DNA of 39,799 nucleotides from a virus (lineage: Duplodnaviria > Caudoviricetes), in the IMG/VR virus record IMGVR_UViG_3300045580_000289, positions 1 to 39,799 of that record; one strand, written 5' to 3'. Under the pieces are notes generated by a model. It worked only from the letters and a program-made list of their open reading frames with translations, did no database searches and was not told where the DNA came from. A program made the position numbers and the translations under genes. Positions 1 to 39,799 of this stretch are shown in pieces. The stretch's first letter is position 1, and each line of letters begins with the position of its first letter.

Positions 1-140
1 ATGTCCGAGACATTGTGCGAGCCAGCCGACCAATGGAGGATGATCCGCTTCATGCTCACGCGGCAGGCTCCGCGGGAACGTAATAGCTCATCCCCCCCGC
101 CCAGATGCGCCGGGGGTTGTCTACGGTGGCGGGGTCCACC
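1..140 (+). repeat. Terminal overlap copy 1 (matches 39660-39799)
   Basis: 1-126 identical to 39660-39785; mismatches at 127, 128 and 137. Confidence 0.97.
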
Positions 141-451
141 CACTCGACGCCAGGGCCGCCTTGAGCCAGCACGGCGAGGTCGTGGCCCTGCTGGACGTAG
201 CCCTCGGGCACGGGGTCGGGAAGCGGGCCGGACACCTGAGTGACACGCACGTTCACATGGTGCCTGTCGTCCATCACCGCTGGCGTGACGATCTCGCCGT
301 CAGGGCCGATCACCGCAGGGGTCACGACGATGGGGCCGATCTCGTCGATGTAGCAGCCAAGCGGGCGTCCCTCGTCATCGGTGAGCGCCATGTCGGAGGC
401 GTAGGCGTCCCAAGCGGCTTTCGTGTCGGCGCGGTACATTAGATCAGACAT
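56..451 (-). CDS. Fibre-associated protein (putative fibre tip partner or chaperone), 131 aa
   Basis: Start overlaps fibre stop at 451; stop overlaps amidase GTG start across the junction; internal VTPAV repeat. Confidence 0.65.
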   Translation of the reverse strand: MSDLMYRADTKAAWDAYASDMALTDDEGRPLGCYIDEIGPIVVTPAVIGPDGEIVTPAVMDDRHHVNVRVTQVSGPLPDPVPEGYVQQGHDLAVLAQGGPGVEWVDPATVDNPRRIWAGGMSYYVPAEPAA

Positions 452-2745
452 CAGACGGTCCTCGCTTGGAGTTCGCTGTCAGAAATGCGGCGTGGCAGAT
501 AGGTGATTTGCCTAATCCAGCCATTCAACGCCTCTTGGTTTGACGCATACGTTCCTATAGTGAGCATCGTGGCTGCGGCAGGCATCGTTACCGTAGTGTC
601 CGGCGTGCCGAGCGTTCCGTTGAGAGCAGCATTCGTGTCGTTAGCCGCAACAGCCGTTCCGACTTTGAAGGTCGTGTTTGATGTAACACTTCCTAGCGCC
701 ACATTTGACTGAGTGCTTCCGCCTGAAACAACGAGCTGTCGGAGTTCTGTCGAGAGCTGCTGATTGTATAGGCCAATGCGGTTTGAAGATGTTTCATTCG
801 ACAGCAGGATGACCGATCTGAAGCCGCCTGATGTAGAAACCGACATCATCTGTGCGCTTACAACCAAGGAAGACGCGCTCGCCGAGTACGGGAACTGACT
901 GGTTGCCACGGAGGCAACATCGGCGCTGCGGGTGACGGTGGATGCGCCCGTGGGAATGTAGCTGGTGGCGAAGGATGCCGCTTCCTCAAGCTGTGCGCCG
1001 TAGATCACCGTGGAGCCTGTCGTGGCATTATTGCTAGTGCCGTTCCCAGTAGTGTTAATCGCCGCAAAACACTGGAAATACAGGGTCACATTACCCGTCG
1101 AGTTGTTCGCAGTTCTGATCTCAACTCGCCAATACGTGCCGTAATCAGTGACCACACACGTAGCTGTCGGCCCTTGGTTCCCGGTTGAGGCAGTGGCAAC
1201 ACCGGTGTTCGTGTTAATCGTGAACCCACTGACAACCGCTTGGCTGCCCCCCAAGATGTTGATCGTAAGCAAAGGGAATGAGGCAGCAGCCGTCGTCTTC
1301 CTAAAGAAAAGGCTGCCTACATAAAGCTTGCTGTCGTTGGCAACGGTATAAGGCTGGAATACAGATGAGGCGGCTGAGGCGTTGCTGTCTGTAATTGTCC
1401 ATGCGCTATTCGTAACACCATCCGGGCCAACTTGATCCTGAGCAAGTGTTGCGCCATCTATTGCTTGCCACGGGGCTGTCGTGAATGCGTTGGTGCGCCG
1501 AAGCAGATTGGTCCTCTGCTCCTCCACCAGCAACCCGCGACACGCAAGAGACGACGGATCGAAATCCCGCCGTGGCCCATGGTAAGCGCCCGCAACGGGT
1601 GCTGCGAAGGGACTGGCGACATAGGGGTCCAGCGAGGCGCTGTCGGAGAGCTGCGCGCCCCAGAGGTAGATGCCAGAGGTGCCGTTCGGGGTCCAACTTC
1701 CGGTAACAGAGCCAGAAGTATAACTATCTGGAAGAATGTAGAGCGCAAACCGCTGCGGGGTCGCTCCTGCAAACGTTGTGGAAATACGATACCAACCGTC
1801 GGATAGAGCAGCAATTTCTGGATTGGTTGGAGTAAGCCCACCTGATGTGTTGGTCGCAAGGACGCTTCCAGCACCGCTTAACAAGAAAGCTACAGAGGCA
1901 CCAGTAAACTGATCTTCTCTAAGTGCTACCTTTGTATATCCATTCGGTTTCACATAGATAGAGTGCTTTTGGCTGTTGCCCGCAGAAGATACACTCGCGT
2001 AAACAACATGAGTTCCGCTTGTTGTGTCTGGAATAATCAGGTCAGCAGTCTGAAGGCCATTGGGCGACAGCAAGGCGTTGGAGAAAGACCCAGAACCAAA
2101 TGCGAGAATGTTCAGCTTGTTCCAATAAGCATTGCTAAAGTCCTCACTGAACCCCAACAGGTTCTTCGCCGTGGTCGGGTTATACAGCGGATAGGCGCTG
2201 GTGTTCGCCTGCATGCCGCCGAGGTCGCTTCTATAACAATAACCGCCCCAAACAAGAAGGTCTGCAGCCGTCTGTGAGCTATCAGCAATAATGCCGACAG
2301 CGTAACTTCCGGCCTGACTTGCAGTAAACTCTATTGTGAATAACTGCCAAGCCGTGGTCGCTGTCTGATTGGAGGAAATTGTTGCCGTCTCATCGCCGTA
2401 TATGCGGAACGTTTGAGATGATCCGATGTTAGACTTCACCCAAAGACCAAAAGTAAACTTTTGTCCAATAGCTTGCGAAATATTTTGTTTGACGAACCAA
2501 AGACCCGCCGCGCCGACCACACGATCAGCAGTCGTTGTGCTGTTTGGCGCGGTGGCCGTATTTGCCGTAACAGTAGCCGCAGCAGTTGTGCTCTTAGTCC
2601 ATACGCTCGCATCGAACTGCTCGCTCGCCAGCAGCAGATTATGCGGAGCCCACTTGATGCGGCCATCCGCGTCCGTCACGGTCGCTAGGCTGCCGCGCGA
2701 GAAGGTGATAAGTTGAGTGGCAAAGCCGGTCGTTGTTGTCGGCAT
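451..2745 (-). CDS. Head-spike fibre / receptor-binding protein with three NLL...GAQL beta-sandwich modules and a LamG-like C-terminus, 764 aa
   Basis: FSRGSLAT...PRRDFDP...RGLLVEEQRTNLL, YGAQLE..FATSYIPT..VTRSAD, C-terminal YLPRRISDSELQ; lies downstream of spike-base gene; AGGGA 8 nt before ATG. Confidence 0.85.
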   Translation of the reverse strand: MPTTTTGFATQLITFSRGSLATVTDADGRIKWAPHNLLLASEQFDASVWTKSTTAAATVTANTATAPNSTTTADRVVGAAGLWFVKQNISQAIGQKFTFGLWVKSNIGSSQTFRIYGDETATISSNQTATTAWQLFTIEFTASQAGSYAVGIIADSSQTAADLLVWGGYCYRSDLGGMQANTSAYPLYNPTTAKNLLGFSEDFSNAYWNKLNILAFGSGSFSNALLSPNGLQTADLIIPDTTSGTHVVYASVSSAGNSQKHSIYVKPNGYTKVALREDQFTGASVAFLLSGAGSVLATNTSGGLTPTNPEIAALSDGWYRISTTFAGATPQRFALYILPDSYTSGSVTGSWTPNGTSGIYLWGAQLSDSASLDPYVASPFAAPVAGAYHGPRRDFDPSSLACRGLLVEEQRTNLLRRTNAFTTAPWQAIDGATLAQDQVGPDGVTNSAWTITDSNASAASSVFQPYTVANDSKLYVGSLFFRKTTAAASFPLLTINILGGSQAVVSGFTINTNTGVATASTGNQGPTATCVVTDYGTYWRVEIRTANNSTGNVTLYFQCFAAINTTGNGTSNNATTGSTVIYGAQLEEAASFATSYIPTGASTVTRSADVASVATSQFPYSASASSLVVSAQMMSVSTSGGFRSVILLSNETSSNRIGLYNQQLSTELRQLVVSGGSTQSNVALGSVTSNTTFKVGTAVAANDTNAALNGTLGTPDTTVTMPAAATMLTIGTYASNQEALNGWIRQITYLPRRISDSELQARTV

Positions 2746-2748
2746 CGA

Positions 2749-2991
2749 TCAAATCCCTATCGCGTAGCTGTCCACTGTGAAATCAAGACCCAGGCCGTTG
2801 TCAGCTCGGATAGGCCCGGCGCCCAGAAGCAGCTCGGCATTGGTGGCGGTGCGAACGGCATACGTGTTGCTGATGAAGTCGAGAGAGAAACCGCGCCACT
2901 CGTCATCAAGCGCGCTCACTGCGGTCCAATGACCGCCCCCGCCCGTGAGCGGTATCGCAGGCGTCGCTATGGCGCGGGCTAGTTTCACCAC
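2749..2991 (-). CDS. Small spike adaptor/anchor protein with two LDF motifs, 80 aa
   Basis: Between spike base and fibre; GFSLDF and GLGLDF motifs; in frame with fibre, separated by TGA TCG. Confidence 0.7.
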   Translation of the reverse strand: MVKLARAIATPAIPLTGGGGHWTAVSALDDEWRGFSLDFISNTYAVRTATNAELLLGAGPIRADNGLGLDFTVDSYAIGI

Positions 2992-3215
2992 TGCCTCACG
3001 AGGCCGGTGGCCGTCGTGGCGGCCATGACGTTGGTGAAACGCTGCACGATGACAGTGCCGGCGGGCACGGCGACAAACGTCACCGTCTGGCCCGCCTCGG
3101 TCTTGAGCGTGACATTACCGGCGCCGCCAACGTAGAGCGCCACGCCGAAATTATCGGCGGTATCGCTCGGCGTCACAGCCGCGGCGTTAGAAGGGATCTG
3201 GGAATTGAGCGACAT
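2985..3215 (-). CDS. Head-spike base protein (RcGTA Rcc01079-like), 76 aa
   Basis: AVTPSDT..ALYVGGAGNV..G.TVTF..VPAGT....V.A.TTATGLV..W pattern; GGAG SD. Confidence 0.85.
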   Translation of the reverse strand: MSLNSQIPSNAAAVTPSDTADNFGVALYVGGAGNVTLKTEAGQTVTFVAVPAGTVIVQRFTNVMAATTATGLVRQW

Positions 3216-34919: not shown

Positions 34920-35209
34920 CCGCACCTCCAAACACTACCGTCGAAATACACTGTGACCCCAACGGTGCCGCCTCCGGTGACTGCCGTTGCAAAGGTCGGG
35001 GTTGTCGCGTCAGTCACGTAGCCCCGCACGCCAGCCTGGGCGTCGACAGGCAACTCCGACACGAGGCAGGCCGGGAGGAAGCCAGCAAGCAGGCTCTCGC
35101 GGATCTGTACGTTGTTACGGCGGATGACTTCCTCGATGCGGCGATTGCGCTGCCGCTCGTGGGCCGGGTCGTAAACAGGTGACGGCTGGACGAGGGTCAC
35201 GTCGCTCAT
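34916..35209 (-). CDS. Tail needle/plug-position protein, 97 aa
   Basis: Follows nozzle; C-terminal LP.....G.RGYVTDAT..TF...V.GGG...V.VYFDG..W..G. Confidence 0.6.
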   Translation of the reverse strand: MSDVTLVQPSPVYDPAHERQRNRRIEEVIRRNNVQIRESLLAGFLPACLVSELPVDAQAGVRGYVTDATTPTFATAVTGGGTVGVTVYFDGSVWRCG

Positions 35210-36855
35210 CGCATGCCTCCCGCCTTCAGCCGCATGCGAAGCTTGCCCAACGCCCAGGGCGTGTCTGCCGTGGGTGTCAGGCGCATGGCCATGGAGCGCG
35301 AGCGGAAGCGAACACCCGTATAACCTTCAGTGTTGTTCAGCGAGATGGGCCCCACGACACGCTCAGGAGCCGCAGGCGCCTGGCGCAGCTTGAACGTCAG
35401 GGCGTATGCAGGCTCCGAGTAGTCGAACCCGTGGACCGGGTCATTCGTCCAGCCATCCTGCCAGATCCGGTCAACGCGCATGACGCGGTCACCATTGGCA
35501 ATCTCGAACTGGCCCGTCTCGGCGTAAATGTCATTGACGCGCGTGGCGCCGGCGGCGAGATCTCCGGTCTCATGGAAATACTCGTACTGGCCATTGAACA
35601 GGATGGGCTTGCTGTCCCAGATCGGATTGAGCCAGGCCGTGCGCGCGAGTTGCCCCATCGACCAGTAAGGCTCGCCGGCGATCGACACGAACACGTAGCG
35701 GTCTGGGCTTGGCGAGCCCGTCGAGGGGTAGAAGCACCAGATCTCGCGGTTGTACTCGTTATAGCCAAGGAAGACGTTGGCCGGATTGCTGAGGTTGCCC
35801 CGGAGCAGCACCTCACTGTCGACCGTCGAGGGCACCGGCGTGATGGCGCCATCGAAGCGCCAGAAGCCTTCCTTGGAGAGCCAGAAAGCCCCGCCCGTGA
35901 CAGAGACAAGCGTATTCTTGCCCGCACAGCCCACCTCGTCAGAGAGACGACGACGGGCGTAATAGGCAGGCGCGCCCACGTACTCGATCATGTGCGCGTC
36001 GACATCGGTCAGCACGAGGATGCCGCCCTGCACCGGGCAGGCCGCAACGATCGAGCCCGAGCTGTTGAGCTCGAACCCGCCAGCGGTGTTCGTGGCCGAG
36101 GCCGTCCAGGTCGTGATGTCTTCGCGGTTGCACCATTTCACCCGGCGCGGGTTGTTCCGGCCGCCGAGCACCATGACCATGCGCTCCTCGGTCACGACGA
36201 CGAGGCCGTTGCCGGTGGGTGCATTCGTCACCGGCTGCGCCACGACGGTAGGGGTCGACGGATCCCACGAGAACAGGCGGCCGTCCTGGGTGTGGACGGC
36301 GACGAGGTAGCGCCCGAAATTGTCGAGGGACCACTGGCCGATGCTGTCCGACACGGTGGGCGCACCCTTCCCGTAGTAGCCGTCGCCGAAAAGGCCGGCG
36401 CCGTAGCCTGACACCGGGGGCTTGCTCCACACAAGACCGGCCGGTGTGATCGTGCGGACGGTCGTATTCGTGGGGCTGGGCGAGGTGGCGTAAAGGTTTC
36501 GCTGCGTGCCGACCGCGTACCACGGGGTCTTGCCGTTGTCGACCCAGGAATAGGCATCGCGGACAATCTCGAGGGCTGACGGTTGGGATCCGGGGATGAT
36601 CTCCGCGGCCGTGGCCGTGCGGACGGCCGAGGCATCGGTCGTGAAATCAAGCGACATGCCCTGCCACTCGTCGCCGATGAGGCTGGTGTCGACGCCGAAG
36701 CCCTTGCCCTTCACCCAGCCCTTGATCGGCGTGAGTTGCCCCTGCTCCCAACGCACCCAATTCACGTCCCACCAGCGGCGCCCCACGGAATAGGGAGTGC
36801 CGTTCCGAACGACGCCGGGCGGGATGTCAAGAACTGGTGCGCTCTCTCCGCTCAT
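35206..36855 (-). CDS. Tail nozzle / DNA stabilisation protein (P22 gp10-like beta-propeller)
   Basis: IPPGV.RNGT.Y....RW.D.N.VRW, WSLDNFG..L, R.V.W...ED.T.W.....N.AG, EIW.FYPS, G.L.RT.W, G.R end. Confidence 0.88.
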   Translation of the reverse strand: MSGESAPVLDIPPGVVRNGTPYSVGRRWWDVNWVRWEQGQLTPIKGWVKGKGFGVDTSLIGDEWQGMSLDFTTDASAVRTATAAEIIPGSQPSALEIVRDAYSWVDNGKTPWYAVGTQRNLYATSPSPTNTTVRTITPAGLVWSKPPVSGYGAGLFGDGYYGKGAPTVSDSIGQWSLDNFGRYLVAVHTQDGRLFSWDPSTPTVVAQPVTNAPTGNGLVVVTEERMVMVLGGRNNPRRVKWCNREDITTWTASATNTAGGFELNSSGSIVAACPVQGGILVLTDVDAHMIEYVGAPAYYARRRLSDEVGCAGKNTLVSVTGGAFWLSKEGFWRFDGAITPVPSTVDSEVLLRGNLSNPANVFLGYNEYNREIWCFYPSTGSPSPDRYVFVSIAGEPYWSMGQLARTAWLNPIWDSKPILFNGQYEYFHETGDLAAGATRVNDIYAETGQFEIANGDRVMRVDRIWQDGWTNDPVHGFDYSEPAYALTFKLRQAPAAPERVVGPISLNNTEGYTGVRFRSRSMAMRLTPTADTPWALGKLRMRLKAGGMR

Positions 36856-39242: not shown

Positions 39243-39718
39243 TGCACCAGGCTCCTGATGTAATTGCCGCAGGCCTTGGCCGTCTGCAGCTCAGGCTTGC
39301 CGGGAATGCCGAAGGCAATGTCCACCTTGCCATTCTGCTTGATGCCCAGTGTCGTCTGGACCTCGGCGTGGGAGAGCACCGTCGAGGCCGTTACGGGGAT
39401 CCCGTACTGCTTCGCCAGCTTCTTCACGAGGGCCATGCAGGCATCAAACTGGACCTTGGTCAGAGGATACTTGCCAAGCCTGCCGGGCCCTTCAGCGCCG
39501 AGCATACCAGCCATCGCCACGCCGATTGATCCGGCATTGCAGCCTCGCGTGTGGGCCGCGTAGATGCCATCCGACGTGCTGAGATTGTCTTCGATCGGGT
39601 GATCGCCCTTCACGATCGTGCCGTCACCGGCAACAATCCGATGGTAGTGCTCGCGGTCAATGTCCGAGACATTGTGCGAGCCAGCCGACCAATGGAGGAT
39701 GATCCGCTTCATGCTCAC
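39239..39718 (-). CDS. Endolysin, N-acetylmuramoyl-L-alanine amidase (Amidase_2), 159 aa
   Basis: RIILHWSAG, HYH....DG, AHT.G.N.GSIGV, VLSHAEV, K.D. Confidence 0.9.
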   Translation of the reverse strand: MSMKRIILHWSAGSHNVSDIDREHYHRIVAGDGTIVKGDHPIEDNLSTSDGIYAAHTRGCNAGSIGVAMAGMLGAEGPGRLGKYPLTKVQFDACMALVKKLAKQYGIPVTASTVLSHAEVQTTLGIKQNGKVDIAFGIPGKPELQTAKACGNYIRSLVQ

Positions 39719-39799
39719 GCGGCAGGCTCCGCGGGAACGTAATAGCTCATCCCCCCCGCCCAGATGCGCCGGGGGTTGTCTACGGAAGCGGGGTCAACC
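39660..39799 (+). repeat. Terminal overlap copy 2 (matches 1-140)
   Basis: Direct comparison, 137/140 identical. Confidence 0.97.

Follow-up and report, generated by a model that had tools for sequence, protein, structure and literature searches.

A detached fibre peptide on a head-spike adaptor and a tail nozzle may give one podophage fibre several addresses on the virion

The window analyzed here is the whole 39,799-nucleotide IMG/VR virus record IMGVR_UViG_3300045580_000289 (Duplodnaviria; Caudoviricetes), and its subject is a head spike whose fibre appears to be divided between two genes. As the initial annotation had described, a 76-amino-acid (aa) spike base (2985..3215), a small adaptor open reading frame (ORF; 2749..2988) and a 764-aa fibre (451..2745) follow each other, all on the minus strand. 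The adaptor carries two copies of a peptide, here called the xDF peptide, which relatives of the fibre hold in their own chain and which this fibre lacks, and a third copy lies in the tail nozzle; all three are found at the places given in that annotation. We propose, with a probability of roughly 0.65, that strand complementation in trans gives one fibre several virion addresses, namely the capsid spikes and the tail.

The split between adaptor and fibre is real. At the split point (2746..2758, minus strand), an AGGGA resembling a Shine-Dalgarno sequence (2754-2758) precedes the fibre ATG by 8 nt, in line with the earlier claim that the fibre has its own initiation signal, and the TGA stop of the adaptor (2749-2751) is separated from that ATG by one codon. 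As both ORFs share a frame, error and readthrough had to be excluded. The initial annotation had staked its idea on the TGA being genuine, and the reads of the likely source run show no difference across the stop (depth 34; not independent of the assembly), while two other strains bridge it with TGA in one and TAA in the other. Both strains have an adaptor nearly identical to that of the window, depart from it shortly behind the start of the fibre and have another fibre sequence beyond 2606. In related loci, the adaptor-fibre junction is out of frame in 16 of 24 distinct cases (34 loci), and all three stop codons are used. Sequencing error, readthrough and TGA recoding were rejected on the grounds of the TAA in the sister strain and the out-of-frame junctions. 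The fibre has neither an anchor nor an LDF strand, as had been stated, and it begins not at ITFSR but 13 residues before TFSR, with a conserved MPTTTTG segment; the same MPTTTG-type start is found in 109 of the best 120 of 1983 fibre homologues (including the window's own), the others being fused (7) or truncated (4, one of them reassigned by hand from split). Two side observations concern this region. Although the sister strains share the adaptor, their fibre sequence becomes a different one near 2606 (window 2606-2728), which, together with a G+C content of 54% in the fibre and 61% in the genome, fits frequent cassette exchange. And in many relatives (e.g. L004, L009, L021, L022, L038, L046), the last V-R codons of the adaptor (GTG AGG) double as the ribosome-binding site of the fibre, and the split may have arisen in this way.

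By sequence comparison, the adaptor is the detached N-terminus of the fibre, with the xDF peptide doubled. Its start is probably the second GTG (2988), which gives 79 aa, one residue less than the 80 aa counted previously from the first GTG at 2991; the GTG at 2988 overlaps the stop of the base gene and fits homologues that start with MK(L/V)ARG. The first 10 residues (2959..2988) are a predicted base-binding anchor, followed by donor peptide copy 1 (DEWRGFSLDFISNTYAVR; 2851..2904; 38.6 bits with the motif profile) and, at the C-terminus, copy 2 (2752..2802; 19.4 bits). No PHROG or Pfam family matched the adaptor, which belongs to the family defined by the motif profile. This profile is matched by 82 clusters (50% identity), most of which are proteins of 44-156 aa that vary at the N-terminus and have 1-3 copies of the motif, whose family consensus is L-x-x-E-x-x-G-h-x-h-D-F-x-x-N-x-Y-x-h-R. 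Across loci, the type of adaptor N-terminus follows the upstream gene family: K-h-A-x-x-I-A-T-P anchors are paired with 76-82-aa Rcc01079-like bases, R-x-h-h-S-P-h-x-G-I anchors with 94-aa upstream genes, and A-G-h-G-K/R anchors with 107-aa genes, and fused fibres that neighbour these upstream families begin with the same anchors as the adaptors. It is this tracking, and the sharing of anchors with fused fibres, that identifies the adaptor as a detached fibre N-terminus, and the anchor assignment is further suggested by residues 2-10 of Rcc01080, which have this role according to PMC7296036. One adaptor (P0297) bears an alternating L-G-L-G-L anchor as described for Rcc01080. A search of 50,697 deposited phage records gave no match to the adaptor, so that it has probably not yet been seen in a cultured virion; in the ESM Atlas it matches unnamed viral clusters with a low recognition score, which is a weak indication.

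The peptide is present in cis where the fibre is fused and in trans where it is split. Fused relatives hold it 26-38 residues ahead of the F-x-R motif (P0318, 35.9 bits; P0153, P0161, P0165, P0211, P0238), which bears out the earlier statement that an LDF strand precedes F-x-R in the same chain of this family. In the tandem protein P0308 the peptide opens each of two modules, and P0320 combines it, with no inserts, with a LamG-like domain, the two taking up about 220 residues; a homologue search for other compact modules of the P0320 type found none. In split fibres, the motif profile scored nowhere above 6.4 bits, and a circular permutation that would have moved the peptide to the fibre's own C-terminus was rejected for this reason. 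The fibre thus lacks a segment that its relatives carry in cis, as expected of the acceptor in donor-strand systems. In a pattern search over 155 loci, which yield 106 distinct fibre starts but are related and hence do not give independent counts, a gene ending in the peptide precedes 41 of 47 split fibres versus 2 of 59 cis fibres, and both of the latter matches are false positives, with no real motif evident by eye. Because of this relatedness, a Fisher p of 2e-20 for the contrast is given no weight. The 41 donors comprise 24 adaptors, 15 fibre C-termini and two 138-139-aa proteins. Of the six split fibres missed by the pattern, one (L031) has a donor by profile and four belong to a clade with a 69-aa tail donor. 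A survey of 50 whole records, as the initial annotation had called for, found a donor in 27 of 30 split-fibre records, in 11 of the 30 in a tail-region gene. Records with fused fibres had a donor outside the fibre in 0 of 13 cases, which is a weak negative because the adaptor-trained profile misses diverged donors such as the L041 tail.

The 15 fibre C-termini among the donors point to a further use of the peptide. These complete fibres keep their cis peptide, end in an extra copy and directly precede a second fibre without its own peptide (L041:8119-12199, L042, L268, L270, L271, L273, L275, L278, L279, L303-L306, L311, L332), and from this arrangement of genes a fibre-on-fibre chain is predicted.

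The third peptide copy of the window lies in the tail nozzle (549 aa; 35206..36855, minus strand). This protein belongs to phrog_3287, its family profile matches the VP1 nozzle gp16 (8zkk, E 2e-18) and 7z47 (E 3e-11), and its position beside adaptor and tail fibre is also that of podophage nozzles of the VP1 gp16 and SU10 type; a PDB search with the single sequence gave no direct match. Self-comparison and the alignment of homologues delimit an insert of about 40 residues (residues ~54-95; 36571..36696, minus strand) with the peptide at 36601-36672. The identity between the 24-residue segments of adaptor and nozzle, reported before as 16/24, was reproduced (48 of 72 nt) and exceeds the 9-12 reached by the best 24-mers in 60 ORF shuffles against all six frames. 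Codon positions 1, 2 and 3 agree in 20, 19 and 9 of the 24 codons, and as third positions agree less, the likeness is kept at the protein level. When the window's own genome is searched, adaptor residues 10-61 match the nozzle with E 8e-10. Among the 50 closest nozzles, 8 carry an insert of the window type; its motif columns are conserved and codon positions 1-2 more so than position 3, as in the nozzle body; judged by this pattern, the insert is under protein-level selection. It forms a clean 40-residue indel between nozzles that are 95% identical, and a 28-row quick tree requires five gains or losses, at least four of them forced. The initial annotation had tied its idea to the insert keeping company with the fibre, and in a search that started from the nozzle (7 loci), all four insert-bearing contigs hold the fibre; the three insert-free loci are 6-10% fragments, and in one of them, L001, the slot of the fibre is taken by an unrelated protein of 467 aa. 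A metagenome nozzle scan returned mainly distant relatives. The same loop in the nozzle P0080 is occupied by an entire LamG domain of the fibre type, present in cis (hhalign 85%, E 6e-6; phrog_5939, E 6e-7). As a side observation, the nozzle relatives P0036, P0040, P0041, P0045, P0080 and P0086 have inserted domains of 180-230 residues, five of them at the peptide-insert loop, with the CBM-like insert of P0086 elsewhere in the nozzle.

The peptide is also found on many other tail components. Carriers include nozzles (in two different loops), the tail terminator (PF11367), a phrog_384 protein, a phrog_1082 tail assembly protein, 69-90-aa tail proteins, tail proteins with Trp (W) repeats, a tail-fibre C-terminus and baseplate-region proteins. 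One clade with a split fibre has no head adaptor, and its only donor is on a 69-aa tail-region gene (L015, L030, L044, L066; G010, G018, G040; G018 being 97% complete), so in this clade the fibre may be confined to the tail. Separately, small tail-region proteins with an N-terminal donor peptide and C-terminal short Trp-containing repeats (L035:3089-3352, L229, L233, L243, P0296, P0302) represent a possible second adaptor class.

How could such a system function? In LamG domains, the first strand pairs with the last. In the proposed mechanism, the N-terminus of the adaptor would plug into the base pentamer, as that of Rcc01080 does, and the peptide would form a beta-hairpin that supplies the missing first strands of a LamG-type domain, which is discontinuous in the fibre (residues 1-35, 371-411 and 596-764); the MPTTTTG strand of the fibre would pair beside the donated hairpin. 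That the hairpin completes the LamG-type domain in trans in this way, with MPTTTTG alongside, is in our view highly probable. With its two peptide copies, an adaptor could hold two fibres at each vertex, and the tail would have up to six sites, one socket on each of six nozzle subunits; docking of the fibre to the tail of this phage is likely. The fibre would complete its fold on whichever socket it meets. As a socket comprises only about 20 residues, recombination can move it freely and would drop it into any exposed virion protein, where it could be gained and lost without restraint. In its widest form, the idea is that a 20-residue strand cut from a lectin fibre serves as a movable label that addresses fibres to sites all over the virion, written into spike adaptors (1-3 copies), nozzle loops, the tail terminator, baseplate and tail-fibre proteins and the ends of other fibres; gain and loss of this cassette would set the number and position of fibres, and the fibre itself could be swapped as one gene. 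We regard this generalization as evenly balanced between being right and wrong. In comparison with the initial annotation, which placed donor sites on adaptor and nozzle, the distribution of donors has turned out wider, with many tail proteins and fibres involved, and the tail copy optional.

Several observations speak against trans complementation, and those that concern the tail would suit an arrangement in which the adaptor docks the fibre on the spikes only and the loop with the nozzle copy has no use or another one, being a duplication that is tolerated or an additional hairpin of the propeller. The insert is dispensable, being absent from the 95% identical nozzles and from five of nine near-complete split-fibre records, which have a head adaptor and no tail donor. 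The nozzle loop tolerates unrelated inserts of 220 residues. The motif resembles beta-propeller blades, and the nozzle itself is a propeller; three of 39 matches of a DNA pattern were chance propeller-like hits in records without the fibre. Among the records that carry the 69-aa tail donor, only 4 of 19 yielded a match to the fibre, as did 0 of 3 with W-repeat tail adaptors, all of these misses being 7-58% complete fragments. The split fibre L329 shows no donor upstream, three of the 30 split-fibre records (33-70% complete) have no donor at all, and the peptide-like start of the P0080 insert was seen by eye and has no score with the motif profile. Fibres on the head alone would nevertheless leave the protein-level conservation of the insert to be explained, and they do not fit with the recurrence of the peptide in at least six unrelated non-propeller tail proteins, with the clade that combines a split fibre with a donor in the tail region only, or with P0080, which bears the fibre domain itself in this very nozzle loop. 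We consider this head-restricted arrangement unlikely.

A second group of objections comes from the structure models. AlphaFold2 gave for the window fibre a C-terminal CBM40/LamG/pentraxin-like sandwich (Z 13-16), with VIA matches over the fibre domains at Z 13-20; Foldseek with the whole fibre model found multi-domain glycan-binding proteins at TM-scores too low to be informative. The sandwich 620-763 is confident (pLDDT, the predicted local distance difference test, about 85-95) without any peptide, and residues 1-35, 176-193, 371-397 and 607-617 are unplaced; in the fused P0211, residues 1-84 including the peptide stay under pLDDT 50. The initial annotation had regarded a fibre that folds completely alone as fatal to its idea, and in the models the sandwich is confident without the peptide and linker segments find no place. 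Strand donation in trans, which is strongly supported by the comparison of genomes, likewise found no counterpart in models that leave the peptide unplaced even in the fused homologue. As AlphaFold2 did not place the peptide there, we can only infer the binding and the exact groove. PDB searches with the fused N-terminal alignment, the last 169 residues of the fibre and the P0320 module matched nothing useful.

These models would agree with a fibre that is stable alone and binds the peptide in trans as a surface add-on to its linker segments, and such a hub would also suit Rcc01080 (325 aa), which aligns to P0318 only up to residue 289 and whose length leaves no room for a complete sandwich at the C-terminus. 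Two findings argue for the missing LamG strand instead: P0320 unites peptide and LamG-like domain in about 220 residues with no inserts, and the modelled sandwich aligns to solved CBM40 and pentraxin chains only from about 20 or more residues in, i.e. these chains keep an N-terminal stretch that the model does not match, which is suggestive. Binding to linkers appears improbable to us. It is quite improbable that the peptide binds the 131-aa product encoded next to the fibre, or other peptide copies, and holds the fibre indirectly: the family of this product follows most fibres and tandem copies could zip together, but the family accompanies fused fibres too, trans donors track the loss of the cis peptide, and single-copy donors are common. 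Finally, an erroneous or read-through stop that yields one fused protein, as the shared frame might suggest, is hardly credible in view of the TAA, the out-of-frame junctions and the fibre start common to most homologues. Complementation of the LamG strand in trans therefore remains the reading we prefer.

The base matches 6tb9_E3 (phmmer, E 0.0042; residues 13-71) and phrog_12296, which gives it the small jelly-roll of RcGTA-type spikes and, by homology, a probable position as pentamer on the capsid vertices. The fibre is Rcc01080-like, with a family match to 6tb9_F3 over chain residues 58-284 (hmmsearch, E 5e-48) and to phrog_5939, and comprises three CBM4/16/22-like domains (about residues 36-172, 194-368 and 412-590) ahead of the CBM40/LamG-like sandwich (614-764); since these folds are CBM-like, the fibre is predicted to bind glycans. 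The 131-aa partner gene (56..451, minus strand) overlaps the fibre stop and matches no named family, and its 82-166-aa relatives follow nearly all such fibres, split or fused; one may guess at a chaperone or a cap. The record ends overlap (137 of 140 bases match between 1-140 and 39660-39799), and the window is therefore probably a whole circular genome, CheckV rating it 66% complete. The three differences lie near the very end and are likely a strain variant or an assembly end effect. In the PHROG and Pfam annotation, an integrase accompanies genes for capsid, portal and adaptor of the SU10 type, and the phage is thus a temperate podophage. Runs containing the window are mainly freshwater metagenomes, with no RNA data set among the holders listed, and a GTDB search found no prophage relative and no host.

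Normally, the attachment proteins of head and tail are encoded separately, each with an anchor specific to its site. If the proposed mechanism is true, one receptor-binding gene at several sites couples the specificities of head and tail, and a one-gene swap retargets both; it would also explain a large family of unannotated 45-155-aa phage genes, i.e. the 82 clusters described above. How Rcc01080-type fibres are built could be tested directly on this system, in the region that the RcGTA map leaves unresolved, and protein display would gain a natural pair of peptide and domain. In the literature covered, which leaves out most subscription papers, we found no description of a single detached fibre peptide that occurs on the head as well as on the tail.

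Among known systems, chaperone-usher pili and TasA complete an incomplete beta-sandwich with a strand of another chain, as is proposed here, and the fibre-to-fibre donation of the L041 type resembles a two-unit chain of such donor-strand pili. Unlike pili and TasA, which have Ig-like or TasA folds and form open-ended polymers, the domain here is of the LamG type, and among the fibres analyzed none was seen that both lacks the strand and donates one. A peptide-mediated attachment of receptor-binding proteins would be shared with podophages of Klebsiella (KP32, K11 and KP34), where, according to PMC13352976, an exchangeable receptor-binding protein is attached through a conserved peptide of short length together with a partner domain. 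In those systems, which serve trimeric tailspikes on the tail only, it is the incoming protein that bears the peptide and the virion side that bears the branching domain; as this polarity appears reversed here, the window system is not classed as KP32-type, and no T4 gp10-like branching domain was among the PHROG and Pfam matches of fibre or adaptor. In the Pseudomonas podophage A1002 (PMC13730344), the nozzle-rope gp39 docks gp40/gp41 dimers to give a chain-like fibre, and the likeness extends to a nozzle-borne extended segment that docks fibres by beta-sheet augmentation and to split genes that complement missing strands. Unlike A1002, where small dimers of the GP4 gp80 type are docked on the tail only, the proposed donor here is the fibre's own detached segment and occurs on head and tail; 140-170-aa dimers of this type are absent from the PDB matches of the fibre, and only the docking principle would be common to both. 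Distinct head and tail fibres are described for crAss001 in PMC10172136, and the head and tail fibres of RcGTA are non-homologous according to PMC10218006. The closest relative is the RcGTA spike (GhsA/Rcc01079 and GhsB/Rcc01080, PDB 6TB9), which has a homologous base and fibre in adjacent genes and leads one to expect a capsule-binding fibre on vertex pentamers. In PMC7296036, one fibre per base pentamer is bound via Rcc01080 residues 2-10 and the remainder is unresolved, which agrees with the initial annotation's statement that the RcGTA fibre N-terminus binds Rcc01079; our alignment of Rcc01080 with P0318 starts only at Rcc01080 residue 42. Rcc01080 has its own anchor, whereas in the window the anchor-like stretch and the xDF peptide are on a separate gene, with two copies of the peptide there and a third in the tail. 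Because the anchor is not on the fibre, the window spike is best described as a three-gene variant and not as a canonical member of the RcGTA type.

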